A stretch of 64,000 nucleotides of DNA, from assembly GCA_046290465.1 (NCBI GenBank), contig JBKAGP010000001.1, forward strand, positions 4,064,001 to 4,128,000, in the 5' to 3' direction. Below are positions 22,788 through 63,638 of this stretch, piece after piece. Numbering within the stretch: the stretch's first letter is position 1; each line of letters starts with the position of its first letter. The notes below the pieces were generated by a model. That model searched no databases. It was not told the origin of the DNA and saw only the letters and a list, made by a program, of their open reading frames with translations. The DNA is from Planctomycetota bacterium. Lineage in GTDB: Bacteria > Planctomycetota > UBA1135 > UBA2386. A program made the position numbers and the translations under genes.

Positions 22788-23791
<1,004 letters not shown>

Positions 23792-46923: not shown

Positions 46924-48150
46924 TCAGCGACCGCCGTCGCCTTCGCCCTCGGGCAGCCCGAACGAAGCCGGCAGCTCTTCCTTGCCCTTGGTCTGCTCCG
47001 ACCACGGCGCGTTCTTGAGCGTGATCGGGCCGACTTCGCGCAGTTCGTCCGTGCGGCGGTGCTGCACCACCAGCGTGCAGGTGTCTCCGCCGAGTCGCGA
47101 GCTGACCAGCATCTGGAAGTGCGGACCGTTCAGGACGTCGACGCCGTCGACCTTCATGATGACGTCGCCCTTCTTGAGACCGGCTTCCGCGGCTGCGCCC
47201 TCCTTGGGCGTGCCGGCGATCTTGGCGCCGGGTCCGAGGTGCGACGTCGCCAGCTGCACCCCGAGCCAGGCGCGCTGCAGGATGTCGCCTTCCTTCATCC
47301 GTTCGATCAGCGGCTGGATGTCGGCGATCGTCGTCGCGAAGCCGATGCCCGAGTCGTACCACTCGACGCCGGCGTTGCGCCCCGACGGCGACAGCGGCAC
47401 GGCGATGCCGAGCACGCGACCGTGGATGTCGACGACCGCGCCGCCGTAGTTGGCCGGCGAGGTGTAGGCGTCGATCTGCAGCGCGCGTCCGAACAGGCGC
47501 TGCTTCGCACTGACGATGCCGAGGTGCACGGTCGGCTCCTCCTGCGCGAACGTGCGGCCGAGCGCGAAGGCCCATTGTCCGACCTTGACGTCCTTCGGGT
47601 GCACGAACGTCGGCACCGGCAGATCCTCGGCGTCGATCTTGACCAGCGCGATGCCGCGGCTGGTGTCCTCGCCGACGCGCTCCGCGTGGAACGTGCCGAC
47701 CTTTGGCACCGTGATCAGCACGGTCGTCGGATCGAGGTTGAGCGCGAAGCGCGAGATCATGATCCAGCCGTCGGAGGTCAGGATGATGCCCGACGTCTTG
47801 CCCTGCGCCTGCTTGAAGCCGCCGGCGACCAGCGGGAGCTTCTTCTTCTTCTTGTCCTTCTTGTCCTTCTTGTCGTCCTTCTTGTCACCGTCGTCGGGGT
47901 CCCCTTCCGGGTCCTCCTTCTTGGGCTTCGGCTTGGGACGCGGCTTCGGCGGCGCGGGGCCGTCCATCGGTCCGTCCTTGCCCATCAGCCGGCGCGTGCC
48001 GCCGAACGTCTCGACGGTGACCACGAACGGCCCCGCCTTCTTCAGCGCCGCCTGCAGCACCGGCTCGAGCTCGAGGAACTCGTCCAGGTTGCCCTGCTGC
48101 GCGCACAGCGGCAGCGACAGACCCAACAACACGATGGTCGAACGCAGCAT
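46924..48150 (-). CDS. S1C/HtrA-like protease homolog with PDZ, catalytic triad absent
   Basis: SGIILTSDGWIMISRF (no His), DTSRGIA (no Asp), SPANYGG (Ser->Tyr), followed by PDZ. Confidence 0.85.
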   Translation of the reverse strand: MLRSTIVLLGLSLPLCAQQGNLDEFLELEPVLQAALKKAGPFVVTVETFGGTRRLMGKDGPMDGPAPPKPRPKPKPKKEDPEGDPDDGDKKDDKKDKKDKKKKKLPLVAGGFKQAQGKTSGIILTSDGWIMISRFALNLDPTTVLITVPKVGTFHAERVGEDTSRGIALVKIDAEDLPVPTFVHPKDVKVGQWAFALGRTFAQEEPTVHLGIVSAKQRLFGRALQIDAYTSPANYGGAVVDIHGRVLGIAVPLSPSGRNAGVEWYDSGIGFATTIADIQPLIERMKEGDILQRAWLGVQLATSHLGPGAKIAGTPKEGAAAEAGLKKGDVIMKVDGVDVLNGPHFQMLVSSRLGGDTCTLVVQHRRTDELREVGPITLKNAPWSEQTKGKEELPASFGLPEGEGDGGR

Positions 48151-49223
48151 CACTTCTTCGGCTCCTCGGCGAGCGTCATGTCGCCGGTCATCACGCGGGT
48201 GCCGCGCTTCCACATCACCTTGACCGTGTCGCCCGGCTTGTACTTCTCGAGCACGCGACGGAACTCGTTGCAGCTGCGCACCGAGAAGTCGTCGACGCGC
48301 ACGATCATGTCGTCGATACGCAGGCCGAGCTCGCGACCCGGGGACTTGCGCTTGACGCGCTCGACGTAGGCCGGTGGCGACTTGCGGCCGGCGGACTCGA
48401 ACAGCGTGATGCCGGTCCACACCGGCACGACCTCCGCCTCGACCTCGTCGCGCTCCTTGCCGTGCACCATCTGTTCGAGGTAGGGCAGCAGGTCGCGCGA
48501 CGGGATCGCTGCCGACAGCATGGTGTTGGTCTCCTTGCTGTCGAGCAGGCGCATGTTGAGCCCGATCCAGCGACCGTCGAGCGTGAACAGCCCGCCGCCG
48601 TAGTGGCCGGGGTTGTTGCAGGCATCGGTCAGGATGATGTCGCCGTCGTACCTGACGTCAGCCATGCGGTAGCGCAGCGCCGTGTTGGCGGTGCCGACCA
48701 CGACGCCGAACGTCGCGCTGACCTTCTCGGAGAACTCCGCGAGTCGGAAGCAGTTGCCGAGGCTGACGACGAACTGGCCGTTGCGGAACCGCGCCTGCTC
48801 CTCGCTCGGCGGCCACAGCGGCTGCAGCTTGCCGTCGACCTCCTCCGGGTCGATCTTGAGGATCCGTACGCCGAGCTTCTCGTCGGCGGCGAACAGCGTG
48901 GCCTCGTGCACCGAACCGTCGTAGAGCACGACCCGGGTGCGATCCTTCTGCAGCAGGATCTGGTCCAGCGTCAGGATGTGGCCGCGCTCGCTGATAACGA
49001 TGCCGGTCGCGTAGGCCTTGATCGTCGCCAGACCCGACGCGCCGTGGATCTTGACGATGCTCGGCAGCAGCTTGTCGATGGTCTTCTCGACCTGCGTCTT
49101 CGGCTTGCGCTCCGCGAACGAGTAGGCCTTGCCGAAGTCGTTCTTCGCCGCCTTGGGATCCTGCTGCGCTGAGATGGTGGCGGCGAGCGAGGCCGCGAGC
49201 ACGAACGTCAGGGTGCGCATCAT
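48150..49223 (-). CDS. S1C/HtrA-like protease homolog with PDZ, catalytic triad absent
   Basis: TGIVISERGHILTLDQ (no His), DEKLGV (no Asp), NPGHYGG (Ser->Tyr), followed by PDZ. Confidence 0.85.
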   Translation of the reverse strand: MMRTLTFVLAASLAATISAQQDPKAAKNDFGKAYSFAERKPKTQVEKTIDKLLPSIVKIHGASGLATIKAYATGIVISERGHILTLDQILLQKDRTRVVLYDGSVHEATLFAADEKLGVRILKIDPEEVDGKLQPLWPPSEEQARFRNGQFVVSLGNCFRLAEFSEKVSATFGVVVGTANTALRYRMADVRYDGDIILTDACNNPGHYGGGLFTLDGRWIGLNMRLLDSKETNTMLSAAIPSRDLLPYLEQMVHGKERDEVEAEVVPVWTGITLFESAGRKSPPAYVERVKRKSPGRELGLRIDDMIVRVDDFSVRSCNEFRRVLEKYKPGDTVKVMWKRGTRVMTGDMTLAEEPKK

Positions 49224-51043
49224 TCGTTCCCCCTCTCGAACCACGAGGCCTCGGGCGCACCCGAGGCGCGCTTGCCCGCCGACCAGCCGGTCTCGAGTTC
49301 GCCGTCGGCGACCACGCGCAGCTTGTGGCCGAGCACGTAGTGCGCGACGCGCTTGCGACGCAGCGGGTCGCGGAACACGAACCCCGCCGGCGTGCCGTCC
49401 AGCAGGAACCACGCCTCGCACTCGCCGTCGCCCGGCAGTTCGAAGCGATAGCCTGCCTTGCCGTGCACGTGCACGCCACCGAGCAGCAGCGCGTCCTCCA
49501 GCCGTTCGGCCACGGCGGCGCGCGGCCATAGCAGCGGGTTGCCGACCAGTTCGCGGCGCAGCCGTTCGCGTTCGCCGACGGTCAGGTCACGGGTCTCGCC
49601 GTCGACCCGCGCAAAGCCGCTGTCGGGGCCGGTGCGCACGTAGACGTCGTCGCCGATCTCGAGGCGCAGCTGGTCGCCGAAGGCGACGGCGCGGATCCTG
49701 GTGCCGTCGGGACCGCGCCGCGTCCACTGCACCGCGACCTCCTCGCCGCCACCGTCGCTGCCATCCTCGCTGCCATCCTCGCTGGACGGCCAGCGCGCGA
49801 CGATCTGGTCCTTCGCGATGCGACGATCGATGCGGCTACCGAGGCGCGCGTCGTCGCCGGTGCCGTCGCGGCTCGAACCGGTGTCGAGCATGGTCAACTT
49901 GACGGTGACCTCGCGCTCGTCGCCGAACCCGCCGGACTCGAGCGCCGGGCGGTGGCGCAGCGTCACCCAGGCCCCGGCCGGCAGCACGCCGACCATCGTC
50001 GCCAGCTGGTTGGCCGAACGCACCTCGATGCCGTTGAACTGCGTGATCTCGTCGCCGAGACCGATGCCGGCGGCCGCCGTCACCGAGTCCTTGAACATCT
50101 GCTGCACGAACACACCACGCCGGTGCTCCTTGCCCTCGCGCGAGGTCATGAACCAGGCGCTCATGTCGAGGGTGCCGTGCTCGGCGTGACGACCAGAGAC
50201 CAGGTCCCCGAGGAAGTTGTTGATCTGGTTCGACGCGATCGCAAAGCCGACCCCGACGTTGACGCGGCCGCGGTCGCCGATCGAGATGCGGCCGTTGATG
50301 CCGATGACCTGGCCCTGCTCGTTGAACAGCGGCCCGCCGGAGTTGCCCGGGTTGACCGGCGCGTCGACCTGGATGCAGTCCGGGTAGACGAGCATGCGGT
50401 TGCCCTGGCCTTCCTGGTAGCGGTGCGTGCCCGAGACGATCCCGAACGTCACCGTCGGCGTGAAGTCCGTCGCCAGCAAGAACGGGTTGCCCATCGCGAA
50501 CACGGTCTCGCCGACCAGCACCGCGTCGCTGTCGCCGAGTTCGCAGTAGGGCCAGGTCTGGCCCTCCTCCTTGGGCAGCAGGCGGACGACGGCGAGGTCG
50601 CTGCCGGGATCGATGCCCAGCACCACGCCTTCGTAGAGGCGGCCGTCGGGCAGCCCGATCTTCTTGTTCTTGTAGTGCGCCTTGCCGCTCGGCTGGTGCT
50701 CGCGCTGCCAGCGCTCCTTCCACTTCGCGACGAACTCCGCCTCCTCGTCACTGCCGCCGGGCGTCTTGCTGCGCCACTCCTCGAGCACCTCTGCCGGCGG
50801 CTCCGGCGGCTCGGGCAGCTTGTAGTCCTTGTCCGGCTGGCCGACGACGTGGTAGTTGGTCAGCAGGAAGCCGGCGGGGTCGATGATCACGCCGCTGCCG
50901 CCGCCGGGCGAGTCCATCGACATGACCGAGCAGACGGCCTGGGCGCAGCGGTCGATCACGGCGACGCGGCGAGCCTCGCTCGCGACCACGGCGTCGATCG
51001 GGTCCTGCATCGCGCAGGATGCGAGTACGGCGAGCAACATCAT
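49220..51043 (-). CDS. S1C/HtrA-like serine protease with PDZ and a C-terminal extension, triad intact
   Basis: LTNYHVV, DPGSDLAV and NPGNSGGPL motifs; possible lipobox LASC. Confidence 0.9.
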   Translation of the reverse strand: MMLLAVLASCAMQDPIDAVVASEARRVAVIDRCAQAVCSVMSMDSPGGGSGVIIDPAGFLLTNYHVVGQPDKDYKLPEPPEPPAEVLEEWRSKTPGGSDEEAEFVAKWKERWQREHQPSGKAHYKNKKIGLPDGRLYEGVVLGIDPGSDLAVVRLLPKEEGQTWPYCELGDSDAVLVGETVFAMGNPFLLATDFTPTVTFGIVSGTHRYQEGQGNRMLVYPDCIQVDAPVNPGNSGGPLFNEQGQVIGINGRISIGDRGRVNVGVGFAIASNQINNFLGDLVSGRHAEHGTLDMSAWFMTSREGKEHRRGVFVQQMFKDSVTAAAGIGLGDEITQFNGIEVRSANQLATMVGVLPAGAWVTLRHRPALESGGFGDEREVTVKLTMLDTGSSRDGTGDDARLGSRIDRRIAKDQIVARWPSSEDGSEDGSDGGGEEVAVQWTRRGPDGTRIRAVAFGDQLRLEIGDDVYVRTGPDSGFARVDGETRDLTVGERERLRRELVGNPLLWPRAAVAERLEDALLLGGVHVHGKAGYRFELPGDGECEAWFLLDGTPAGFVFRDPLRRKRVAHYVLGHKLRVVADGELETGWSAGKRASGAPEASWFERGNE

Positions 51044-51095: not shown

Positions 51096-52313
51096 CTACC
51101 TCTGCACGACGCGGGCGTTCGCGAACGCGCAGAAGTCGCCGAGGTCGTAGTTCTTGCCGAAGTCGACCTCGATGGTGAGGGTCTTGGCCTTGTCGAGCGC
51201 GACGCGCAGCGCTTCGGGCTTCTGTTCGCGAAGCATCGGCTCGGACTCGAACACCTGCTTGCCGTCGACGTGCACGCGGAAGATCGCGTGCGCCGCCGGC
51301 CCGCCGCGGTCGTCGATGCCGATCATCGCCTCGAACACGTCGAAGCGGCCGTCGAGCGCGTAGGTCAGCCGCGTGTGCGGCACCAGGCCGATCCCACGTT
51401 CGAACTTCTGGCCGGCGAGCTCGAAGCCGGGGCCGGCGACCGAGCGGTTGTTGTGCCAGGGCCAGGTACGGTCGAAGGCCGGCGTCTGCTCGACCTTCGG
51501 CTGCAGGTCGGCGAGCCAGACGAGCTTGTCGCTCGACACCTCGAGCTTGTGCAGGCGGCTGATCGGCACGTCGAGCACGCAGCCTTCGTCCAGGCGACAG
51601 CGCACGCGGTCGGTCATGCTCAGCAGCTTGCCCTCGATGCGCTCGCCGGTCGTCAAGGCGACGACCGTGCGCGGGCGCGGCTGGCGGTTCGGTGCAAAGC
51701 CGGTGTTGGTCCCGAAGACGATCCCGGCGAGGCCGTCGAGCTCGAACTCGTACTCGTCCCCGCGCAGCAGGAAGTCGATCGCCTTCTCGCGCATCGCCGT
51801 CACCGTCACCTGCGAGCGCTGGGCCTGCCCGTCGCGCACGACGTAGATCAGGTCCTCGTTGGCGGGCGGCTCGGCCAGGTCCTGGTTGAACAGGGTCGGC
51901 TGCGGGCGCATCAGGCCGCCGTGACGCACCGCGCGCACGGTGCTGATCGGCAGCTCGAGCTTGGCGGCGCACGGCAGCTGGACGATCACCATCGACGGCT
52001 TGCCGTCGCCACCGGCGCGGCCGCTCAGCCGCTTGGCCGGCAGTTCGGTGCCGGAGCGCAGCCAGACGCGGTGTTCGACGCGAACGTTGCGGGCGCTGGC
52101 GCCCTCCCGTTCGAACGTCACCAGCTCGGCGACGTCGATGACGGTCTCGCCATCGTCACCGCGAACGGTCACCTTGCCGTCCTCGGCGACCGTGACCGCG
52201 CCGGTCAGCGCACGACCGTCGATCGTGCGGACCGTGCCGGTTGCCTGTGCGGGCGCCGCTGCGCAGAGCAGCGCGCCGCACGCGGCGAGAAGTACCGTCG
52301 GAAAGGCGTTCAC
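51096..52313 (-). CDS. NPCBM/NEW2 domain exported protein
   Basis: Signal peptide; C-terminal WLADL..NRSV..G..FERGIG..F.A.IGIDD..F.V.VDG..FANARV. Confidence 0.85.
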   Translation of the reverse strand: MNAFPTVLLAACGALLCAAAPAQATGTVRTIDGRALTGAVTVAEDGKVTVRGDDGETVIDVAELVTFEREGASARNVRVEHRVWLRSGTELPAKRLSGRAGGDGKPSMVIVQLPCAAKLELPISTVRAVRHGGLMRPQPTLFNQDLAEPPANEDLIYVVRDGQAQRSQVTVTAMREKAIDFLLRGDEYEFELDGLAGIVFGTNTGFAPNRQPRPRTVVALTTGERIEGKLLSMTDRVRCRLDEGCVLDVPISRLHKLEVSSDKLVWLADLQPKVEQTPAFDRTWPWHNNRSVAGPGFELAGQKFERGIGLVPHTRLTYALDGRFDVFEAMIGIDDRGGPAAHAIFRVHVDGKQVFESEPMLREQKPEALRVALDKAKTLTIEVDFGKNYDLGDFCAFANARVVQR

Positions 52314-53362
52314 TTGCGGTCGGCCTTACCGAGCTTCTTGTAGTACTCCTCGAGCATCTTCTGGTACTGCGGCGGCATCGTGTTCTGCACGTCCGCCATG
52401 ATCTTCTTGCGCTCGCTGTCGCGCATGTCGCCCCAGCGGTCGGCCAGCGACGGGCGCTTCTTCAGATCGCCGACGTTGCCTTCGCCGCCCGGCAGCGCGC
52501 TGTTGGCGGCCGGGTTGCTCGACGGACCGTTGCCCGAAGGCGCGCCCGAGGACTGGTTCTCCATCTCTTCGAACATCTCGATGAGCTCCTCGAGCTCCTC
52601 GATGTAGGTCTCCTGGTCGAGCTGCAGGGGCTTGTCGGTCTTGTTCTTGCCGAGGTCGCGCTCGGTCTTCTTCATGCCGTCCGCGAGCATGTGCAGGCGG
52701 CTCTCGCGCTGGCGCTCGAGCTCGAGCAGACGCTGGTGGGCGGCCGAACGCAGGCGTTCGCTGGCGTTGGGGAACCAGGCCAGGAAGGCGCGGAAGCGCG
52801 GGATCGCGGCGTCGATCATCGGGATCTCCGCCAGCGACTGCGCATAGAAGTAGGCCGCCTCGCCGTCGAGCGGCGTGCAGTTGAGGTTGTGCGTCAGGTA
52901 CTCGTTGAGCACCTCGATCGCGCGCTCCGGGTCGTTGCTGTCGAGGAACAGCCGCGCCAGGTGGTAGCGCACGTGCGCCTGCAGGACCGGCGACTTGGTG
53001 TTCACCAGCACCTGCGTGAGCAGCAACGCGGCCTTCGGGTCGCGGTCGTAGGCCGCGGTGACTGCTTCGTCGAGCTTCGGGAACACCTTGCGCATCAGGT
53101 CGTCGGCGGCGCGCGCGGCGCCGATCTCCTCGACCTCCTCCGCGAACGTCTTGACCTGCAGCTCGGTACCGCCCAGCTCGCGCGCGGCCTTCTCGAACCG
53201 GGCCTGATCGAAGGGCAGGAACGGGTTCTGCACCTGGATCGGCGGGACCGCCGGGAGGTGGGCCTCCGGACGGATGCCCTCGCCTGGCAGCTCGATCTGG
53301 GCGCGCACGCCGGCGGCGAGCGCACCCAGCGCGAGCAGCGCGAGGATGGACGGTGACTTCAT
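52310..53362 (-). CDS. Exported TPR-like protein with a conserved WGxM...P..Y...EEYY tail
   Basis: Signal peptide, TPR-like helices and C-terminal RWGDMRDSERKK...PPQYQKMLEEYYKKL. Confidence 0.75.
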   Translation of the reverse strand: MKSPSILALLALGALAAGVRAQIELPGEGIRPEAHLPAVPPIQVQNPFLPFDQARFEKAARELGGTELQVKTFAEEVEEIGAARAADDLMRKVFPKLDEAVTAAYDRDPKAALLLTQVLVNTKSPVLQAHVRYHLARLFLDSNDPERAIEVLNEYLTHNLNCTPLDGEAAYFYAQSLAEIPMIDAAIPRFRAFLAWFPNASERLRSAAHQRLLELERQRESRLHMLADGMKKTERDLGKNKTDKPLQLDQETYIEELEELIEMFEEMENQSSGAPSGNGPSSNPAANSALPGGEGNVGDLKKRPSLADRWGDMRDSERKKIMADVQNTMPPQYQKMLEEYYKKLGKADRK

Positions 53363-55398
53363 CAGTTGTCTCCTTCGTCTTCCTTGCCGAGCTTCTCGGC
53401 GAGGCGGCGCATGAGTTCCTTCACGCGACCCTGCTTCTTGGACACCTTGTCATAGTCCTCCTGCGTGGGCTTCTCGTCGCCCTTCAGCGCGTCGAGATCC
53501 TTGGTCTTCTTGTTCACGCGTTCTTGGAGGAACTTCAACATCTTGAGCTCTGCCGACACGGGCACGAGCGGCGGTTGCTTACCGCTTCAAGTACCCGTTC
53601 AACCCCCGCCTTCCTTCATCTCGATGGTGCGGCGCAGGGCGTTGATCAGCATCTCGAGGAGGTCCTCGATGTCCTTCTGGGCGCGGTTCATCCGCGGACC
53701 CGTTTCGTGCTTGCGCAGGCCGGCGGCGACATCGTGCAGCTCGTCGCGGAGCTGCTCGACCATCGGCGGGAACACCGCGGTCGTGCCGTCCTCGTCGAGC
53801 AGCTTCAGCGCGTCGATCGTCTCGAGCTCGAGTTCGGCCTCGGCTCCGGCGAGCGACTCGATCTTGCTGGCGAGCGCGGTCGGCAGCTGACCGTCGGCGG
53901 TCAGGATGTTCTGGCGCGAGCCATCGACCGTCTTGGTCATGATGGTCAGCTCACGCTGGCGCGCGAGCATCGCCGTGAAGCGCTCCTCGAGCGCGCGCAG
54001 GACCTCGTCCTGTAGCTGCTGACGCAGCTGCGCGAGGGCCTCTTCGAGCGCCTTCTTGGCGGCCTCGAGGTCTTCCTTGGCGTCCTGCTGCTTCTGCTTG
54101 GCCGGCTTGTACTCCTTGAGTTGACCGGCAGCGGCGCGCTGCTTCGGGACGGCCTGCTGGACCTTGTTCTTGCCCGGCGTCGGCTCGCCCTCGCCGCCTT
54201 CCTCACCCTGCTCCGCCTTCTCCATGTCCTTGGCGAGGGTGTCGGTGGCGTTCTTGGTCTTCTCCTGGTTCTTGGCCATCTGCTCGAACGGCAGCTTGAG
54301 CAGCTCGCGCTTGGCCTCCTCGGCCATCTCGTCGAGCTCCTTCATCGTCTGCTTGAGCGCCTCGATGGCCTGGTCCTGGTCCTTGAGCGACGGCTCGGGC
54401 TTCTTGTCGCCGAGCTGCTCCTGGGCCTTGCCCATCGACTTGGCGGCCTTGCTGGCGCTGCCGCTCGACTTGCCGGACGAAGGCGAACCCTCACTCGGCT
54501 TGGACTCGGACGGCTCGCTCGGCTTGGACTCCGACGGCTTCGACTCCGACGGCTTCGACTCCGAAGGCTTCGCCTCACCGGGCTTGGCTTCCCCGGGCTT
54601 GGCCTCACCGGGCTTCGCCTCGGCAGCCTTCGCCGCCTTGGCCGCCTCGGCGGCGGCCTTCTTGGCCTCGGCGGCCAACGCATCCGCCTTCAGCTCGGCG
54701 TCCTTCTTGTCGAGGTCGCGCAGGTCCTTGGACAACTCGTCGGTCGCGTCCTTGAGCTCACCCTCCTTCTTCTCGAGCGGCTCGGTCGCACCGGCGGCCG
54801 CATCGAGCGGGAGTTGGTTGGTCTCGTCGCGCAGGGCCTGCTGCTGGTTGAGCAGGTCCTCGGCGCGCTGACGCTGGGCCTCGATGTTCTTCAGGTGCTT
54901 CTCGAGGGCCTCGGCGCGCGCCGAGTCCTCCTTCTCCTGCTGCTGCTCCTTGGCCAGCTCGTCGACCCGGTTCTTGAAGCCCTCGAGCTGCTCGATGCGC
55001 TCGAGCAGCTTGCGCAGGTCCCCGTTGCGATTCTGCAGCAGTTCGAGCAGCGAGCGGAGGTCCTCACGAAGCTTGCCCATCAGCACCAGCGACTCGTCCC
55101 AACGCTCCTGCTTGAGCAGGGTGCCGGCCTTGTCGAGGCGCGAGTGGAGCTTCTTCTCCTGTACGAAGCGAAGGCCTGCGCCGAGCAGCTTGCTCTCCTC
55201 CGGCTCGTCCTTCTGCAGGACGACCATCAGCTTCTGCATGCGGTCGGTCAGGTCCTTGAACTTGCCCTCGGCAAGCTCCTGCTTGCTCTGGGCTGCGGCC
55301 GGCGGGTCCTGCTGCGCCTGCAGCGTCGACGCCATCGGCGTCATCGCTAGCAGCAGCAAGGCCGCCAACACGGCGATACCTCGTGAAATCATGGGCAC
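53362..55398 (-). CDS. Exported coiled-coil protein with two in-frame TGA codons; candidate UxxxU selenoprotein (~678 aa)
   Basis: ORFs 53599..55398 and 53362..53565 share a frame: GGC GGG GGT TGA ACG GGT ACT TGA AGC GGT AAG CAA CCG CCG CTC GTG. Hairpins follow each TGA, and the final stop overlaps the next ATG. Confidence 0.7.
54490..54625 (-). repeat. Intragenic 15-bp coding repeats (EAKPG x3, E[AS]KPS repeats)
   Basis: Pentapeptide repeats in the translation. Confidence 0.85.
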
Positions 55399-55478: not shown

Positions 55479-57725
55479 CTACTTCTTCTTCTTCTTGAAG
55501 AGGTTGTCCTCGCGATCCTTGATCCGGCGTTTGACGTCCTGGATCGCGTCACTCTCCAGGTTAATCACATTCCTGAGTTCTTCGAGTAGGGCAGCCAGGG
55601 TCTCGGCCTGCTCCATCGCCTTGATGATCTCGGCGAGACGGCGGCTGATATCCCGATAACCCTCTACGGCTTCCTTCCTTACGGCTTCATCACTGGAGCG
55701 GACGAAGTCGTTGACCAACCTTGCGGTGGCAGGGAAAGCCTCCTTGGCCAGCTGCTCGAGCGGCGCCGTGATCACGGCCTCGATCTGCCGGACCTTGTTC
55801 TCCTCGATCAGGCGGTTGTTCTCGAGCTCCCACAGGATGCGCTGGTAGGCCTCGCCGACGAAGCGCACGCGGCGGCCCAGCGCCTGCTGGCGGCGGGCGA
55901 ACACGCGGAACTTCGCGGTCGCCTCCTTCTGCCGGTCGCCGGCTTCCTTGGGATTGACGGTCTCGGACAGCTCGATCGTCGACGAGGCCTCCTGGTCCGC
56001 GATCTGCTGCAGCTCGTTGCGCTGCTCGACCTGTCGGCGGCGCAGCTCCTCGATCAGCTGGTCGCGCGGCACGATGCGGAACGTCATCGTCTCGCCGTAG
56101 CCCTCGTGCGGATCGCCGGGCCCGAAGTTGTCCTTCGCCGAGTAGCGCACCGAGAACAGCATGCCCGGCCGGATCGGGTTCTCCGGCGAGTTCTGGTCGC
56201 GCACCTTGTTCCAGGTGAGCAGGTCGACGCTGGCCTCCGCCTCGTAGCGCAGCGCGCTGCGCTCGAGCTGCACGTCGTAGATCGCCTTGGCGTCGGTCCA
56301 CGGCATCTCCGGCAGCGGCGTGCTGTTCTCGCCGCGACCCGGCGCCTGGTCCTCCTGGTAGCGCATCGACGCCATCACCTCGCGCAGACCGAAGTCGTCG
56401 CGCACGCGCAGCGCACCGGGGATGCGCGCCTCGTAGGTGATCGACGAGCCGATGCCGCGCAGACGGAAGTCGACGGTCGGCGACTTGTCCTCGCCGACGC
56501 GCAGCAGCAGCTTGGGCGGCGTACCGGCGCCGAGGCTGTCGTGGTCGATGACGTCGACGATCATCAGGCCCGACTCCTTGGGACGGAACTCGCCGGCGAA
56601 CGTCTGCTGGTCGTCGGCGACGGTCAGCGGGACCTTCTTGTCGTTGCCGAACAGCAGGAACGCCTGCTGCAGCGGCTTGCGGCTCTTGCCCGACACGCTC
56701 AGCATCGCGCCCGACGGCAGCCGCAGCTCGCCCTCGGTCGGCGGCACGTCGAACGGCTCGCGCTCCATGTATTCGGGCAGCGTGACGCGGATGGCGAGGT
56801 CGCCGACGGTCGGCCGCTCGACGATGCGCACCTTCAGCGTCGCCGGCAGCGAGTCGCCGCCCTGCACGCTGAGGTCGAGGTCGCTGACGACCGAGTCGAT
56901 GGTCCAGGTGAACTCGTCGTCGCCGGTCAGGCTCATCGGCTCGGTGCCGACGTCGCCGCCGACGAACTCGTAGTCGACGAACAGCTGGTCCGGCACCGGA
57001 CCGTCGACCTGCACGCGCACGGTCAGCGCGTCCCCCTGCGGCAGCCGCACCTCGCCCTCGCCGTCGACGAACGTCAAGGTCGTGTAGCGCGGCCAGTCGG
57101 TGTTGCTGAGGAACACGTTGCGCGCCGCCCAGATGCCGAGCGACTGGTGGTCGATGCCGGCCCAGGTGCCGAAGAACGCCAGCATCGCGAAGATGCCGAG
57201 GGCGAACTTGCGCACGCGCGCGGCGTCGATCGCCTGCGCGAACGGCACCGCCTGCAGGCGGTCCCGCAGGTTCTGCACGACCGCGGACTTCATCTCGCGC
57301 GACTCGATCGAGCGCGACTCGCGGGCGAGGTCCTGGTCGAACTGCAGCGAACTGATCAGCTGCTGGTCGAGCTGCGGGCACCTTCGTTCGATCGCCAGGG
57401 CGATCTCCTCGTCGCTCAGCTGCACGCGGATCGGTTGCAGCAGACGCCTCAGCACGATGCGCACGACGACGACCGCGAAGCTGCCCAGCAGCACCGCGCG
57501 GAACGCCCACTCGAGCCGCAGGAAGCGGTCGGTCAACAGCGTCGGCAGCGCGTACGCGATCAGCAGCAGCGCGATGACGCCGATGGTCTCGATGTAGAGG
57601 CCCTTGCGGACGCGGCTCTTCTGCTGCTGCAGACGTTCGCGCGCGGCCTGCAGCTCTTGCCCCAGCGTCGGCTGGCTCGGCTGCGGCGCAGGCGCCGGCT
57701 GCTCGGGGATGGTCGAGGTGCTCAT
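55479..57725 (-). CDS. Membrane protein with Ig-like and coiled-coil regions (DUF4175-like)
   Basis: Three N-terminal TM helices, AxxIE..PxL...LISSLQF, DDFGL and a coiled-coil C-terminus; ATGA coupling. Confidence 0.7.
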   Translation of the reverse strand: MSTSTIPEQPAPAPQPSQPTLGQELQAARERLQQQKSRVRKGLYIETIGVIALLLIAYALPTLLTDRFLRLEWAFRAVLLGSFAVVVVRIVLRRLLQPIRVQLSDEEIALAIERRCPQLDQQLISSLQFDQDLARESRSIESREMKSAVVQNLRDRLQAVPFAQAIDAARVRKFALGIFAMLAFFGTWAGIDHQSLGIWAARNVFLSNTDWPRYTTLTFVDGEGEVRLPQGDALTVRVQVDGPVPDQLFVDYEFVGGDVGTEPMSLTGDDEFTWTIDSVVSDLDLSVQGGDSLPATLKVRIVERPTVGDLAIRVTLPEYMEREPFDVPPTEGELRLPSGAMLSVSGKSRKPLQQAFLLFGNDKKVPLTVADDQQTFAGEFRPKESGLMIVDVIDHDSLGAGTPPKLLLRVGEDKSPTVDFRLRGIGSSITYEARIPGALRVRDDFGLREVMASMRYQEDQAPGRGENSTPLPEMPWTDAKAIYDVQLERSALRYEAEASVDLLTWNKVRDQNSPENPIRPGMLFSVRYSAKDNFGPGDPHEGYGETMTFRIVPRDQLIEELRRRQVEQRNELQQIADQEASSTIELSETVNPKEAGDRQKEATAKFRVFARRQQALGRRVRFVGEAYQRILWELENNRLIEENKVRQIEAVITAPLEQLAKEAFPATARLVNDFVRSSDEAVRKEAVEGYRDISRRLAEIIKAMEQAETLAALLEELRNVINLESDAIQDVKRRIKDREDNLFKKKKK

Positions 57726-60220
57726 AGCAGGTTGAAGCGCTTGCGCAGGATCCACTCGATCGACAGCAGCACGAGCACGAGCGTGATCGTCGGCCAGCCG
57801 TCCCAGATGGCGTGCGGGGTGCGGAAGGTGTCGGTCGCCGAACGCGACGGGATGTCGTCGAGCGCCTTGAGCAGCTCGGCGGGGGTGTCGAACAGCACGC
57901 CGCCGTTGGCGCCGGCGATCGCGGCGAGTTCGCTGCGTTCCATCGGCCCTTGCGACTCGATCTGCGCGGCGACCACCTGGAACGAGATCTCGACGGCCTT
58001 GCCGATCTTCTCGACCGGCCGCACGCGGTAGGTGCCGAGCTGGGTCGGCCGGTAGCGCAGCGAGTAGCTGCCGGGCAGCGCCTCGATCGGCACCAGCTCG
58101 ATGTTCTCGGCGGCCTCGCCCTCACGTTCGACCGAGACGACGAACGACTCGGCGATCAGCGGCTGCAGCACCTCGTCCTTGACCTCCGCGACCAGCTCGA
58201 TGGCGTCGCCGAGGTCGATCTTGTCGTCGCTGCCGAGCAGGCGCAGGCGGCTGTTGCCGGCCTGCAGTCGCCCCTCGAACAGGTAGCGGATGCCGTTGAC
58301 CCAGAACCGGTTGTAGGCGTCCTCGTAGAGCGCTCGCCAGCGGTAGGTCTCGTCGGTGCCGAGGAACAGCACGCGGCCGGCACCGAGCTTCTGGATCGCG
58401 ATGACCGGCATGTCCTTGCCGCCGACGCGGAACTCGGGGCTCGGGTGGCCGGCGAGCGACGTCGCGATCGGCTTGAGGCCCGACACCGGGAACCAGAAGT
58501 GGAAGCCCGGGATGCGCTCCCAGAGCAGGTTGCTGGTGTCCTTGTCGTCGTGCAGGCGCATCACCTTGGAGCCGATGCCGTCCATGCCGTCGGGCGTGAC
58601 GCGGTAGCGCCACGGCCGCGGGAACGCCTTGCCGAGGCCGAGCATCTTGCGCTCGGCGAACTCGACGTTGGGCATGATCGGCAGCAGGTCCGCGATCGGC
58701 TGCGTGTTGGCCGTCGGCCGCAGCGCGTCGAGCGTGTGCTGCTCGCCAGCGACCCACCAGAAGCCGCAGCCGCCCTCGACGATGTGCTTGCTGAGGTTGT
58801 CGCAGAAGCGGCGCGTGAGCTTCTCCGGATCCGGATCGATCATCACGACGACGTCGTACGGATCGAACTCGGCGCGCTCCTCGGGCAGGCGCGTGATGCG
58901 CACCTCCTCGTTGCCCTCCTGCGGGAACTTCTCGTCGGCGCTCTGCAGCCAGCAGGAGACGTCGATGGTCTTGTCGCGAATCAGCAGGTTGCGCAGGATC
59001 TGGAACTCGTGGCTCGAGCTGCCGGCGAGCAGCAGCATGCGCAGCCGTTCGCCGAGCACCTCGAGCGCGGCGGTCTTGGTGTGGCGCTCGGCGACCATCG
59101 GCTCGCCGTCCGGCGGCACGATCTCGGTGCGGTAGACGAACCGACCGGGCGCCTCGCTGGTGAGGTCCTTCCAGTTGATCGTCGCTTCCTGGCTCTGGCC
59201 GATCTGCACCTGCTGCGTGCGCACGACGGTCTCGGCGCCCTGCTCGTCGGCGCGGATCAGCCGCGCGGTGACCGCGACGCCGTCGTAGCCCTGCGAGGTG
59301 ACGGTCGCCTTCATCTCGTAGGGGTCGCGCTGGAACACCTTCGACGGCGCTTCCATGCGGGCCAGCGTGACCGTCTGGGTCTCGGACGGGTCGCCGACGC
59401 CGAGCACGAACGTGTGCGGGATCTTGCGCTGCTCGAGCAGGCGCGCGATCTCGGCGCCCTGCGGACCGGCCGTGCGGCGGCCGTCGGTGACGAACACGAC
59501 GGCGGCGATCTCGGCCGGGCGGCTCTTGTCGAGCGCGGTGCGCAGCGCGCCGCCGAGGTTGCTGGAGCGGCCGTCGGCGACCAGCTTGTCGAGATCGAGC
59601 ACCGGCACGGGCTCCTTCTCGTCCGGGTCCTTCGGCAGCGGTTCGCCGTCGGGGCCGAGCTTGGGCGGCGGCGGCGGCACGACCGGCAGCTCGCCGATGG
59701 TGCCGTCGAAGCCGTAGAGCTGCACGCGGTTCTTGGCGGCGAGCTTCTGCACCAGCGCCTGCTCGTCCTTGGCCAGCAGCGCCTTGACGAGGTCGAGGCG
59801 GGTGACCGTCGCCGGATCGTCGGCGCCGGCTTCGGTCCAGCCGACCTTGGCGCGCTGCACCTCGTCGCGGCGCCACGCATCGATGTGCGTCATCGACTGC
59901 GACGTGTCGACCAGCAGGATCGTGTGGCCTTCGCGGACCTCGCGCTTGACCGAGACCAGGTTGGGCTCGAGCAGCAGCAGGATCACGGCGAGCACCGCGA
60001 GCGTGCGCAGCGAACCGAGCACCAGCCGCTGCCAGACCTTCAGGTTCTTGCCGTCACGTCGGTAGAGGAAGCCGATCAGGATCACGGCGACCGCCATGCC
60101 CATCAGCACGAGCATGCCGAGGCCACCGGTCGGGAAGTTGGCGAACTCGAACTGCAGCTCGGAGCCGGGTTCGACCTCGATCCCGCGCCACTGCGCCAGC
60201 CATCGCAAGAAATCGTCCAT
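57722..60220 (-). CDS. Membrane-anchored vWA domain protein with a GATase-like domain
   Basis: MIDAS DTSQSM, VTDGR, GAGRV..GTDETYRWR..FW and C-terminal EWILRKR. Confidence 0.88.
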   Translation of the reverse strand: MDDFLRWLAQWRGIEVEPGSELQFEFANFPTGGLGMLVLMGMAVAVILIGFLYRRDGKNLKVWQRLVLGSLRTLAVLAVILLLLEPNLVSVKREVREGHTILLVDTSQSMTHIDAWRRDEVQRAKVGWTEAGADDPATVTRLDLVKALLAKDEQALVQKLAAKNRVQLYGFDGTIGELPVVPPPPPKLGPDGEPLPKDPDEKEPVPVLDLDKLVADGRSSNLGGALRTALDKSRPAEIAAVVFVTDGRRTAGPQGAEIARLLEQRKIPHTFVLGVGDPSETQTVTLARMEAPSKVFQRDPYEMKATVTSQGYDGVAVTARLIRADEQGAETVVRTQQVQIGQSQEATINWKDLTSEAPGRFVYRTEIVPPDGEPMVAERHTKTAALEVLGERLRMLLLAGSSSHEFQILRNLLIRDKTIDVSCWLQSADEKFPQEGNEEVRITRLPEERAEFDPYDVVVMIDPDPEKLTRRFCDNLSKHIVEGGCGFWWVAGEQHTLDALRPTANTQPIADLLPIMPNVEFAERKMLGLGKAFPRPWRYRVTPDGMDGIGSKVMRLHDDKDTSNLLWERIPGFHFWFPVSGLKPIATSLAGHPSPEFRVGGKDMPVIAIQKLGAGRVLFLGTDETYRWRALYEDAYNRFWVNGIRYLFEGRLQAGNSRLRLLGSDDKIDLGDAIELVAEVKDEVLQPLIAESFVVSVEREGEAAENIELVPIEALPGSYSLRYRPTQLGTYRVRPVEKIGKAVEISFQVVAAQIESQGPMERSELAAIAGANGGVLFDTPAELLKALDDIPSRSATDTFRTPHAIWDGWPTITLVLVLLSIEWILRKRFNLL

Positions 60221-60233
60221 CGTCAATCACCGC

Positions 60234-62561
60234 CTAGCGACGGCCGAACCTCCATGCGAGCAGCGACTCGATCAGCAGCCCCGCGAGCAGCAGCGCCGCC
60301 AGCAGCGGCCACGCCTCGCCCTCGGCGGCGGCCGCGCCGACGCCGGAGTCGTCCCGCACGAACGTGACCAGGTCGTGCACGTTGCTCGGGTACATCTTCT
60401 TGAAGCTCGCCTCGTCGAACGAGACCAGCCGGCCTTCGTCGATCGGGCCGTTGCGCGCGATCATGCGCTTCTCGGCGACGCCGTCGTGGCGCTGCAGGTC
60501 GATCTCGTAGGCGCCGCAGTGCGACAGTTCACGCAGGTCGACCAGCACCTCGAGCATCGGGTTGTCGGCCGGCTTCTGGTCGCCGTTCTGGTCGCCCCCA
60601 TTCTGGTCACCACCGTTGCCGGCTGCGTTGCCGGTGTTGGCATTGCCGGTGTTGGCATTGCCGGCGTTGGCATTGCCATCGCCTTCGCCCGCACCCGCGG
60701 CCGCCTCCGGCTTCGGCGCGACCGCGGTGAACGTGCGCTCGTCCTCGCCGGTCATCGCGCGCAGCGTGACGTCGGGACGGTAGAGGCCGGGATCGATGAG
60801 CTGACGCCAGACCCCGTCGGTGCCGAGGTTGTTGCGGCTGGGGTCGTCGCGCCGCGCCGCAAAGTGGTGCAGCTGGTGGGTCACGACCAGGAACAGGTCG
60901 GTGCTCGGCAGGTTGCACCAGAAGCGGTCGGCGGTGATCGCGAACAGCGCGACCTCGCCGCCCTTGCCGCCGAACGAACGCGTCGTCAGCATCGGCGGAC
61001 CGTCGGCGTTGCGGACCCGCGCGACGATGGCGGCCTCGTGGCCTTCGGGCTCTTCGAGCGTCAGCCAGCGCTTGACCTGCACCCAGTTGCCCAGCACCAG
61101 CTGGAACAGCTCGGCCACGCCGTCGCACATCGGATGCTCCGTCGACGCCAGGAAGGCCGGCTCGGGACGATCGGGATCGCCGTCGATCTCGCCGATCGGC
61201 AGCGGCAGCGGGCCCTGACCGTCGCGCCACAGCAGTTCGTTGTAGCGCGGCGCGTCGACCAGCGAGCCGACCGTGATCGCCAGGCCCCCGCCCGACATCA
61301 CGAACGCCTCGAGCCGCTCTGCGGCTTCCTTGGTCGGCGCCTGCACGTTGCAGAGCCAGACCATGTCGAACGCGCCGAGGTTGACCTCGTCGAAGCCCGA
61401 CTCGGTCACCACCTGCGCCTCGATGCCGGACTCCGGCACGTCCAGGGTGGCCTGCAGGAAGAACGTCTCGCCATCGTCCTCGTCGGGCTGGCCGTCGACC
61501 AGCAGCACGCGGCTCTTCTCGCGGACCTGCAGCGCCAGCGTGCGCCGGTCGTCGAACGGGAACGTGCCACCGGGCTCGAGCGTCGCCTCGACGCGGTGCG
61601 CGCCGGCGGCGTGGAACGTGTAGTCGAACGGCACCGTGACGCGTTCGCCGGGGGCGAGCTGCGGCACGTCCTGGTTGACGCTGGTCTGGCCGTCGACCTC
61701 GATCGCGACCGTCGTCGGCGCCGTCGGGTCGAGCCCGAAGTTCTTGATGTCGATGCCGAGCGTGACCGGCACCGCGGCGATCGCCAGCCGGTCCTGCAGC
61801 TTGATCTCGACGACCGCGAGGTTGTCGTGCTGCCCGCCGACGTGCAGCACGGTGACGTGCTCGCTGTCCTTGTCGAGCGAGCCGAGCCCCTTCATCAGCG
61901 CCGGCCGCGGCTTGTCGTCGGTCGTCGACCAGTCCCACGAACGGCGGTCGCCGATGACGTAGTACTCGGTGCGCGCGGCGTCCTTGACCTCCTTGCTGCG
62001 CTCGACGGCCTTCTGCATCGCCTGGCCGAGGTCGGCCGAGAGGTCGCTGACGACCATCTCCTTGAGCGCGGTGCCGGCGGTGCGGCCGAAGTTGCTGCCG
62101 ATGCGCTGGGGGGTCAGCGCCCATTTGTCCGGCGCGCTGGTGCGCACGATCGAGAACAGATCGCCGCCGCGACGCTGCGCCAGGTCGTCGGCCAGCTGCC
62201 GCGCCTTGTCCTGCGCCTTCTCGAACAGGTTCGAGCTGCCGCTGCGCTGCGTCATCGACGCGCTGTCGTCGAGGATCACCACGTGGTGGGTGCGCGAGCC
62301 GAGCAGCGCGCCGCCGCCGAGCTGCGGGCGGCTGACCAGCGACACCAGCAGCAGCACCGCCAGCACGCGCAGCAGCAGCACCAGCCACTGCTCCATGCGC
62401 AGGCGCTTGCGGTTGCGCTTCATCGCCTTGAGCAGGAACTCCATCGCCGCCCACGGCACCTTCTTGAACCGGCGCCGGTTCAGGATGTGGATGATGATCG
62501 GCACGGCCGCCAACGGCAGCGCCCACAACAGCAGCGGATTGAGGAAGGCCAATCCGATCAT
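60234..62561 (-). CDS. BatA N-terminal + vWA + CARDB-like domain protein
   Basis: FLNP...PIIIHILNRRR...WAAMEFL, LLLLLR, MIDAS DDSASM, DDRR and a C-terminal TM with IESLLA. Confidence 0.9.
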   Translation of the reverse strand: MIGLAFLNPLLLWALPLAAVPIIIHILNRRRFKKVPWAAMEFLLKAMKRNRKRLRMEQWLVLLLRVLAVLLLVSLVSRPQLGGGALLGSRTHHVVILDDSASMTQRSGSSNLFEKAQDKARQLADDLAQRRGGDLFSIVRTSAPDKWALTPQRIGSNFGRTAGTALKEMVVSDLSADLGQAMQKAVERSKEVKDAARTEYYVIGDRRSWDWSTTDDKPRPALMKGLGSLDKDSEHVTVLHVGGQHDNLAVVEIKLQDRLAIAAVPVTLGIDIKNFGLDPTAPTTVAIEVDGQTSVNQDVPQLAPGERVTVPFDYTFHAAGAHRVEATLEPGGTFPFDDRRTLALQVREKSRVLLVDGQPDEDDGETFFLQATLDVPESGIEAQVVTESGFDEVNLGAFDMVWLCNVQAPTKEAAERLEAFVMSGGGLAITVGSLVDAPRYNELLWRDGQGPLPLPIGEIDGDPDRPEPAFLASTEHPMCDGVAELFQLVLGNWVQVKRWLTLEEPEGHEAAIVARVRNADGPPMLTTRSFGGKGGEVALFAITADRFWCNLPSTDLFLVVTHQLHHFAARRDDPSRNNLGTDGVWRQLIDPGLYRPDVTLRAMTGEDERTFTAVAPKPEAAAGAGEGDGNANAGNANTGNANTGNAAGNGGDQNGGDQNGDQKPADNPMLEVLVDLRELSHCGAYEIDLQRHDGVAEKRMIARNGPIDEGRLVSFDEASFKKMYPSNVHDLVTFVRDDSGVGAAAAEGEAWPLLAALLLAGLLIESLLAWRFGRR

Positions 62562-62597: not shown

Positions 62598-63638
62598 TCA
62601 GCGCTGGTAGATGGGGACCAGCGCGTGGGGGAGTTGCAGGATGGTGGTGGCGACCGCGGTGCCGTAGACCGCACCGACGTTGTCGCCGCGCCAGCTACCG
62701 TCCTTGCGTTGTTGCGCGAGCAGGTACTTGCATACCTGCCGGTAGTACGTGTCCCAGTCCTCGCCGCCGCGCTGGTAGAGCGCCTGCGACCAGTAGAGGT
62801 GCGTGTAGTAGTGGTGGCCGGTCGTGTCGACCGAGACCTTCAGGTGCTTCTTGCAGAACTGCACCGCCTTGTCGACGAACGGCTGGTCGTCGTAGACGCC
62901 GGCGTTGTAGAGCACCGCCACGCCCGCCGCGGTGATCGCCGGCTGGCTGTTGGAGCCGCGCATCGCGAGCTTGTAGCAGATGCCGCCGTCGGCGTTCTGG
63001 CAGCGCTTGATGTAGTCGACCGCCTTGTCGATCGTCTTCTTGTCGCACAGGATCCCGGCCATCTTGCAGGCGCGCAGGGCCTGCACCTGCGTGACGGTGA
63101 CGCTGCCTTCGTCGTCGTTGGAGTCGGGCGTGTAGATCCAGCCGCCGGCCGACGACTGCGCCGCGGCGATCAGGTCCTCGGCCTTGTCGAGCGCGCGCTT
63201 CAGCCGCCGCTGGGTGCGCAGGTCCTGCTCCATGCCGTAGACCGACGCCAGGAACAGCGTGGCGAAGCCGTGGCCGTACATGCCGTGGTGCTCCTGGCGG
63301 CCGAGCGACAGGTAGCCGGTCTGCGGGTCGGACTTCTTCAGCAGGTAGCCGACCGCGCCACGAACCTCGCGCCAATGACGGCCGCGGGTCGGCGTCGAGC
63401 CGCTCGCGAGGAACGCCATCCCGGCGAGCCCGGTGATCGCGACCGGGTAGGTGCCGTAGCCGCCGGCGTTGCGCCAGCTGCCGTCGTTGGCCTGGTTGTT
63501 CGCCAGCCATGCGAGCCCCCGGTCGATCGCAGCCTGCACGTCGGCAGGCACCGCGCCCGACGAACGCACAGGCTCCTGCGCCAGCAGACACAACGGCAGC
63601 AGCAGCGCAGCGCCGATCGATCGGAACGGGTGGGGCAC
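62598..63638 (-). CDS. Prenyltransferase/squalene oxidase repeat protein (exported)
   Basis: AIDRGLAWLANNQANDGSW, MYGHGFATLFL, GGWIY, QNADGG and QRKDGSW (QW motifs). Confidence 0.9.
   Translation of the reverse strand: MPHPFRSIGAALLLPLCLLAQEPVRSSGAVPADVQAAIDRGLAWLANNQANDGSWRNAGGYGTYPVAITGLAGMAFLASGSTPTRGRHWREVRGAVGYLLKKSDPQTGYLSLGRQEHHGMYGHGFATLFLASVYGMEQDLRTQRRLKRALDKAEDLIAAAQSSAGGWIYTPDSNDDEGSVTVTQVQALRACKMAGILCDKKTIDKAVDYIKRCQNADGGICYKLAMRGSNSQPAITAAGVAVLYNAGVYDDQPFVDKAVQFCKKHLKVSVDTTGHHYYTHLYWSQALYQRGGEDWDTYYRQVCKYLLAQQRKDGSWRGDNVGAVYGTAVATTILQLPHALVPIYQR

Follow-up and report, generated by a model that had tools for sequence, protein, structure and literature searches.

In a 64,000-nucleotide stretch of a Planctomycetota genome (assembly GCA_046290465.1, contig JBKAGP010000001.1, positions 4,064,001 to 4,128,000 of the forward strand; hereafter the window, on which positions are numbered), two consecutive minus-strand open reading frames (ORFs) of 599 and 67 amino acids are very probably parts of a single gene, whose product would be an exported, all-helical protein of 676 residues with selenocysteine (Sec) at both of its internal UGA codons. 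A two-Sec selenoprotein had been proposed for this locus from a sequence-only reading, and the proposal is supported by the presence of the Sec machinery, by homologues with Cys or TGA at the two positions, by the absence of a split between two genes and by the recovery of the same TGAs in independent assemblies. As judged from these comparisons, the gene belongs to a real and apparently undescribed selenoprotein family.

Structure of the gene

The whole gene is found at 53362..55392 on the minus strand and comprises 676 codons and a stop, when it is read through the first in-frame UGA at 53599..53601 (Sec598, the first site) and the second at 53587..53589 (Sec602, the second site). Both TGAs were located in the common frame of the 599-aa ORF (53599..55398) and the 67-aa ORF (53362..53565), which are separated by these two codons only and with no frameshift, as had been described earlier. 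The minus-strand letters at the site are GGT TGA ACG GGT ACT TGA AGC GGT, and the read-through product runs ...KEGGG-U-TGT-U-SGKQPPLVPVSAELKML..., with SGKQPPLVPV directly after the second Sec, up to the TGA at 53364-53362. The A of this last codon is also the A of the ATG of the next ORF (52310..53362), an overlap that the sequence-only reading had already reported, and a second in-frame TGA follows, so that the gene truly ends with TGA TGA in tandem (53359..53364). It is worth noting that such a tandem terminator closes a gene that would read two other TGAs as sense.

The ATG at 55392 is the likely start of the gene, because a GAGG precedes it by 5 nt and the consensus of the homologues opens with M-I-x-R; the protein then has 676 residues, with the two Sec at positions 598 and 602. 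Consequently, the U-x3-U motif of the earlier reading stands, while its size (~678 residues) and its numbering (Sec at 600 and 604) do not. The read-through protein contains no Cys and two Sec. As dozens of independent assemblies have TGAs at these aligned places, the pattern is, at the level of sequence comparison, far beyond chance.

The letters themselves are well supported, since both TGAs are covered by contigs from three other public runs. One of these (X3 record 19) has no differences over the compared stretch, another (X11 record 2) has a single one, at position 54043, and the third (X2 record 17) has 19, none of them at the TGAs among the differences listed. Additionally, a 580-nt contig from an RNA library, which represents a relative with ~93% identity, spans and keeps both TGAs, although it is no proof of transcription or read-through. 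The TGAs are not sequencing errors, the possibility that the earlier reading had named as one to be shown by raw reads, since independent assemblies have the same TGAs.

Exchange of selenocysteine and cysteine in the family

When 41 related genomes were searched with the last 245 residues as query, matches were obtained in 31, and the best ones contain two TGAs in 11 genomes (its own included) and one TGA in six, with none in the best matches of the more distant genomes. A wider scan of related genomes and metagenome contigs gave 87 loci, of which 12 were too divergent or cut and 75 allowed the site to be located; several of these 75 are identical and not all are independent. The loop reads U-x3-U in 21 of them and U-x4-U in one, one Sec is accompanied by a Cys within the 16 residues before L-V-P in 32 (15 U-x2-C, 8 C-U, 8 C-x2-U and 1 U-x4-C), a lone Sec is found in one, Cys only in 15, and neither residue in five. 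Thus, two Sec are present in 22/75 loci and one in 33/75, that is, 55/75 loci bear TGA at the same aligned codons. The first site is TGA in 54/75, with Cys at or near it in other homologues, and the second site is TGA in the 21 U-x3-U loci, in register with the second Cys of the C-x3-C homologues. A further 54 loci were taken from species-representative genomes, all of them titled as metagenome-assembled genomes (MAGs) of uncultured Planctomycetota; the site was located in 50, and the 21 new sequences left the pattern unchanged, adding a second U-x4-U form (L113).

Of 120 proteins from databases that are related to this C-terminal part, 54 stop exactly at ...G-G-[G/C/H], where gene callers have truncated them at the TGA. 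The site is crossed by 61 more, and in 59 of these the loop contains Cys (20 C-x3-C, 18 C-x-C, 6 C-x2-C, 1 CC and 14 with a single Cys), and in the alignment the C-x3-C forms are in register with U-x3-U. Trp is never seen at the two positions, where homologues have Cys or TGA. Nowhere in the alignment block shown around the site is conservation higher than in the stretch that follows the TGAs (PLVPVSAELKML...), which has many invariant columns, and the downstream part has no conserved start codon of its own in relatives. Sec/Cys exchange combined with downstream conservation is, in the aligned sequences, the classical Sec/Cys signature, and it would thereby rule out both the decay of the gene and its division into two genes. 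The earlier reading had held that Trp at these positions in homologues, or their routine division into two genes, would speak against a selenoprotein; Cys or TGA was found instead, and the part that would form the second gene lacks a conserved start and carries the most conserved residues around the site.

Some variants extend this series. In L136, the C-U pair is one residue further upstream, and a stem GCGGC/GCCGC is found with a loop GGUCC that still begins 18 nt after the UGA, so that the register of the RNA element shifts along with the Sec. The Cys-only homologues P0003-P0014 have extra Cys that are not found in the protein of the window. For instance, there is a C-x-C in the linker region of some (residues 298 and 300 of P0010), and forms with a single loop Cys have another Cys 39 residues ahead of the loop (510 and 549 of P0003), which may be an alternative partner. 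When P0010 was looked up in Atlas, only Planctomycetota 'hypothetical protein' clusters were returned.

Selenocysteine machinery of the genome

The single-contig genome (6.59 Mb) encodes a full set for Sec synthesis and insertion, namely selA, a SelB winged-helix domain, selD and a tRNA-Sec with anticodon tca; all the components that had been named earlier for verification were found. The selD gene adjoins selA and contains an in-frame TGA itself. SelA is present in 40 of the 41 related genomes, the sole miss being a genome that is 81% complete. In this genome, 12 of 23 AhpC/TSA matches appear to have an in-frame TGA, as does its one Rdx (SelW-like) match. Examples of these genes, all of them outside the window, are found at 1208067-1208456, 2767479-2767847, 5113871-5114230 and 3102914-3103126 of the genome contig. 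The organism uses Sec heavily and has a large selenoproteome, and no alpha subunit of formate dehydrogenase (FdhA) scored over the cut-off in the genome. The loops of its Sec insertion sequence (SECIS) elements start at distances of ~18 to 31 nt from the UGA; four TlpA-like paralogues, for instance, have a common 7-bp SECIS stem, and their GGUC loop is 31 nt downstream of the UGA. ARAGORN additionally reported, outside the window, an 88-nt tRNA at 4452296-4452383 with a four-base anticodon (gatc), whose identity the tool gave as undetermined.

Two candidate SECIS hairpins

Downstream of the UGAs, two adjacent hairpins within the ORF are candidates to act as SECIS elements. Hairpin 1 (53571..53585, minus strand) has a 5-bp stem, GCGGU/ACCGC, and a loop, AAGCA, that starts 18 nt after UGA1. 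In the predicted fold of free RNA, a lower stem (53603-53591 with 53565-53552, minus strand) lengthens it, and the 85 nt from just before UGA1 form a long hairpin with a minimum free energy of -32.8 kcal/mol (z-score -3.3), a stability that none of 200 shuffled sequences reached. In an ungapped alignment of 31 distinct sequences with Sec at the first site, the loop begins 18 nt after the UGA in all 31, and 92.5% of hairpin 1 cells are paired, while controls slid along the alignment only reach 27-77%. One base pair is U-A in 22 sequences, C-G in eight and A-U in one, being unpaired in none, and another is C-G in 25, G-C in three, U-A in one and something else in two. The covariation score was not reached by any of 500 shuffles, and RNAalifold recovered the same stem from 17 sequences. 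Compensatory changes are also observed inside the U-x3-U clade itself, and several of the changes fall at synonymous positions in codons for Ser, Gly and Pro. Single-Sec forms share a near-invariant 6-bp stem with a loop GGUCA or GGUCC, and GGUC is also the loop of the post-UGA hairpins in the four TlpA-like selenoprotein genes of this genome.

UGA2 is only 2 nt ahead of hairpin 1. The geometry of the ribosomal mRNA channel requires a hairpin to be at some distance from the UGA, and hairpin 1 is probably too close to UGA2 to act on it in the usual way. For UGA2, the candidate SECIS is hairpin 2 (53547..53569, minus strand), which is formed by the L-V-P-V-S-A-E-L codons. It comprises 8 bp, one bulged base and a loop, CGUGUC, whose start is 26 nt from UGA2, a distance also found in the selD of this genome, and its folding energy is -11.9 kcal/mol. 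When the 44 nt after UGA2 were folded with the lower stem removed, two tandem hairpins made up 81% of the ensemble.

The exact sequence of hairpin 2 tracks second-site Sec and not first-site Sec. It is present in all 19 distinct sequences with Sec at the second site, with one A to C variant that shifts the bulge and keeps the 8 bp. Outside the U-x3-U clade, second-site Sec is found in L066, L113 and L070 (L124 being identical to L070), and all three match the hairpin 2 element at 27/27 nt. No background segment does so (0/48 distinct segments, the best with 24/27), and the chance expectation of such a match is ~9e-6 when background codon use and independent codons are assumed. On a tree of 83 distinct sequences, built with the loop left out of the alignment, the state of the second site changes at least eight times, and the approximately unbiased (AU) test rejects a single clade for second-site Sec (log-likelihood difference 415, p 3.6e-121). 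L070, which has Sec at the second site only, folds hairpin 2, and its nearest relative, the Cys-only L121 (93% identical), has four synonymous differences in the element. Two lineages that lost the second Sec (L049/L060 and L046/L047) have also lost the hairpin 2 element.

The stem of hairpin 1 is built from complementary Gly (GGN) and Pro (CCN) codons, and it is also present in Cys-only loci such as L020 and L059, among others, in their codons for G-G-G-Q-P-P. The stem is found in the Cys-only relative L020 because Gly and Pro codons build it, and the site would therefore have been pre-adapted. In some Cys-only forms, the L-V-P-x-S-A-E-L codons are likewise foldable. It seems that hairpins already there in the coding sequence were recruited as SECIS elements.

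A scan of the genome for TGA codons followed by elements like hairpin 2 returned one known Prx selenoprotein gene and other hits that seem to be out of frame, and was uninformative. A search of 53400-53700 against Rfam with E up to 10 gave two chance rows only. A third hairpin (~53550-53530) was considered and dropped, being broken in the group of L011-L014 and L017.

Proposed decoding and function

In the mechanism that we propose, SelB and tRNA-Sec would decode both internal UGAs as Sec, and the resulting U-x3-U pair would lie in a Gly-rich loop flanked by two conserved C-terminal helices. We cautiously favour two adjacent SECIS hairpins within the ORF, one per UGA: hairpin 1, in the Gly/Pro codons, would serve UGA1 with its loop 18 nt downstream, and hairpin 2, in the L-V-P-V-S-A-E-L codons, would serve UGA2 with its loop 26 nt downstream. 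The ribosome would open the long lower stem, freeing the 5′ arm of hairpin 2, which could then form.

The Sec pair contains the sole thiol- or selenol-type residues of the protein. Among relatives, the spacing of the pair varies from x0 to x4, and His is often adjacent to Sec (G-H-U). Our first choice, which we put forward tentatively, is that the pair is a redox-active diselenide or selenylsulfide centre on a flexible arm; a soft-metal site is our second choice and a less probable one. The protein might act as a subunit in an envelope complex of Bat-like (BatA/vWA) type with no MoxR gene next to it. Taken as a whole, a tandem-SECIS module in which hairpin 2 was gained at least three times together with second-site Sec, and which would produce a diselenide-forming pair on the Gly-rich arm of an exported subunit, is rather doubtful in all its parts at once.

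Weighing the alternatives

That translation stops at the first UGA to give a 597-aa product, with the 67-aa ORF made separately or not at all, is very improbable. Gene callers do split the gene there, as the 54 of 120 database entries ending exactly at the site illustrate, the 67-aa ORF opens with GTG, and a truncated product may well arise under selenium scarcity. However, this GTG is the Val codon of the conserved L-V-P-V and is GTC or ATC in many relatives, the reading frame and the four-codon spacing are conserved between the two TGAs, full-length homologues hold Cys at the TGA positions, and conservation around the site is highest in the downstream part. A pseudogene in which two nonsense changes had accumulated during decay, or a sequencing or assembly error, has next to no probability, as nothing speaks for it except the stop codons themselves, while the same aligned codons are TGA in 55/75 loci from many assemblies, the letters are repeated in the three other runs, protein conservation goes on past the TGAs and the RNA around the site shows compensatory changes. 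The earlier argument that two independent nonsense mutations would be less parsimonious is in line with this outcome, the recurring TGAs and the downstream conservation contradicting decay or error. Decoding of UGA as another residue (Trp, Gly, Cys or Arg), by near-cognate tRNAs or through a changed code, has a probability as low as that of two separate polypeptides. Strictly, the comparative data demand no more than read-through, but TGA is a real stop, in tandem, at the end of this very gene, the genome encodes the complete Sec machinery together with many canonical TGA/Cys redox genes, homologues have Cys and not Trp or Gly at the aligned positions, and hairpins are found at SECIS-like distances from the UGAs.

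A more serious alternative keeps Sec at both UGAs and has them served by one shared SECIS, either hairpin 2, whose loop is 26 and 38 nt from the two codons, or the long extended hairpin, with hairpin 1 being a relic or a stabiliser. We consider it unlikely, though far less so than the previous explanations. In its favour, the loop of hairpin 1 is atypical in this gene, SECIS loops are found ~18 to 31 nt after the UGA in this genome, and UxxU and UxxxxU families exist (PMC13188914) for which no description of two SECIS elements was found in the literature consulted. By contrast, the compensatory changes of hairpin 1 persist within the U-x3-U clade, the distance of its loop from UGA1 is fixed at 18 nt in 31/31 sequences, and the exact sequence of hairpin 2 follows second-site rather than first-site Sec.

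Returning to the reading with two Sec and one hairpin for each, several observations weigh against it or against parts of it. The loop of hairpin 1 in this gene, AAGCA, is not of the GGUC type, and it is atypical by the rule of bSECISearch, which places a G within the first two loop positions. Several Cys-only homologues (L062-64, L077, L078, L083 and L026) fold at the position of hairpin 2, with other loops and at -11.6 to -12.7 kcal/mol, and the fold alone is consequently not specific there. The sequence of hairpin 2 is also kept in five close relatives that lost the second Sec, recombination, and not convergence, could have spread the 27-nt element, and the group submitted to the AU test was named only after the tree had been seen. 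It is because of these caveats on hairpin 2 that we hold the two-hairpin arrangement only somewhat above an even chance and keep the shared SECIS as a lesser possibility. Regarding the RNA-library contig, DNA carry-over is possible, and a polycistronic mRNA would span the TGAs regardless. Finally, all relatives are uncultured MAGs, Foldseek detected no relative in the PDB at E <= 0.001 (the best value, 0.18, being for long helical proteins), and the proposed function is grounded in motif logic only.

The protein and its family status

An AlphaFold2 model built from 54 aligned sequences is all helix, with a predicted local distance difference test score (pLDDT) of 79.2 and a predicted TM-score (pTM) of 0.66. 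It shows a helix at residues 5-15 followed by disorder at the N-terminus, and the Sec loop (595-611) is between helices 566-594 and 612-635. The protein is probably exported by a Sec-type (secretion) signal peptide; the candidate, of ~26 residues (55315..55392, minus strand), was read by eye from the translation as a hydrophobic core followed by L-Q-A before Q-Q. Residues ~263-306 (54475..54606, minus strand) are a low-complexity linker of Pro/Glu/Ser/Lys repeats, with pLDDT <50 and predicted to be disordered.

The read-through protein had no match in Pfam or NCBIfam, even at E up to 1, and the GOS_B and GOS_C models of NCBIfam did not match it either. DUF4175 (PF13779) is also without a match in the protein of the window; it is found in 4/54 homologues with 17-21 bits, all below the Pfam gathering cut-off of 27.3 bits, at model positions 503-794 and away from the Sec loop. 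A 2026 review tabulates 119 prokaryotic selenoprotein families (Table 1, PMC13188914), and none of them matches, as far as their Pfam, NCBIfam and TIGR models go, and no coiled-coil or Bat-operon protein is among them. Neither Planctomycetes nor this family is mentioned in the parts consulted of BSepDB (PMC13326102), deep-Sep (PMC12013277) and the GOS study (PMC2398784), and no paper joining selenocysteine with aerotolerance or BatA was found in the literature searched. The sequence-only reading did not recognise the family as a described selenoprotein, which agrees with its absence from Pfam, NCBIfam and the 119-family table. It had also been said that two Sec so close together are unusual, and they are, but not without precedent: the same review lists Prx-like, FmdB-family and metal-binding NF041115 proteins with UxxU and TsoB with UxxxxU, and UxxU is also described from GOS reads (PMC2398784).

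Operon setting

The gene is part of a row of minus-strand genes. The row is headed by a protein of the prenyltransferase/terpene-cyclase-like alpha-alpha toroid type (62598..63638), and continues with a protein that combines a BatA-type N-terminal double transmembrane (TM) region, vWA and CARDB (60234..62561; PF07584 1.3e-18, CARDB, a weak VWA_2 and TIGR02226 2.9e-20). Two large ORFs of 834 and 758 aa without family match come next (55479..60226), their frames having been picked by tight spacing only, and are followed by the selenoprotein gene and then, according to a domain scan, by a TPR protein (52310-53362), an NPCBM-domain protein (51096-52313) and three HtrA-like Trypsin_2+PDZ ORFs (46924-51043), of which only 49220-51043 has strong DegP/HtrA scores in NCBIfam.

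No MoxR gene adjoins the row within the 64-kb window. The nearest MoxR-type AAA_3 match is ~30 kb off, on the plus strand (22934-23332), in an open frame of 704 aa, and eight AAA_3 genes score over the cut-off genome-wide. The earlier assignment to a vWA/BatA operon agrees with the BatA-type double-TM and vWA gene in the row.

Comparison with known systems

The textbook case of an in-ORF SECIS read by SelB is the formate dehydrogenase H of Escherichia coli. The gene described here resembles such SelB/SECIS genes in its in-frame UGA, in the predicted hairpin just downstream within the ORF, in its Cys homologues and in the accompanying selA, selB, selD and tRNA-Sec, but it differs from them in having two UGAs 12 nt apart with two adjacent candidate hairpins and in not encoding an oxidoreductase of known fold. 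Animal thioredoxin reductase has a C-terminal Gly-Cys-Sec-Gly redox arm, and the eukaryotic SelL forms a UxxU diselenide. As in these proteins, the near-vicinal Cys/Sec or Sec/Sec pair of the new family is on a flexible segment flanked by Gly, and some members read G-G-C-U-T-G, akin to the thioredoxin reductase arm. Unlike that arm, the loop is internal and not a C-terminal tail, and there is no flavoprotein or thioredoxin fold; unlike in both eukaryotic cases, the candidate SECIS is bacterial and inside the ORF.

The bacterial UxxU and UxxxxU families also have two Sec within a few residues, suggesting a diselenide or a chelating pair. By contrast, the protein described here is unrelated to them, has a U-x3-U spacing that is unlisted in the review (PMC13188914), and is a long, helical and predicted-exported protein encoded in an envelope operon. 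With the Bat and MoxR-DUF58-vWA operons, the row shares a BatA-type double-TM and vWA protein and a TPR protein, although MoxR is not adjoining and no Bat selenoprotein was found in the papers searched. DUF4175 proteins are related, at most, through the weak sub-threshold matches in four homologues, which do not cover the Sec loop.

Implications

These results add a widespread, unannotated selenoprotein family of uncultured marine and freshwater Planctomycetota, for which gene calling systematically yields a truncated 'hypothetical' or 'chromosome segregation' protein instead. Its members constitute a natural series (CU, CxxU, UxxC, Ux3U, Ux4U, CxC and Cx3C) of Sec/Cys exchange around a fixed SECIS, and the unusual arrangement of two UGAs and two hairpins would offer a compact test case for the bacterial insertion of two Sec 12 nt apart. 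The Sec/Cys pair may also provide a residue-level handle on Bat-like envelope operons, whose biochemistry is obscure. If the tandem-SECIS and diselenide reading were true, redox chemistry would for the first time be indicated in Bat/MoxR-type envelope systems.

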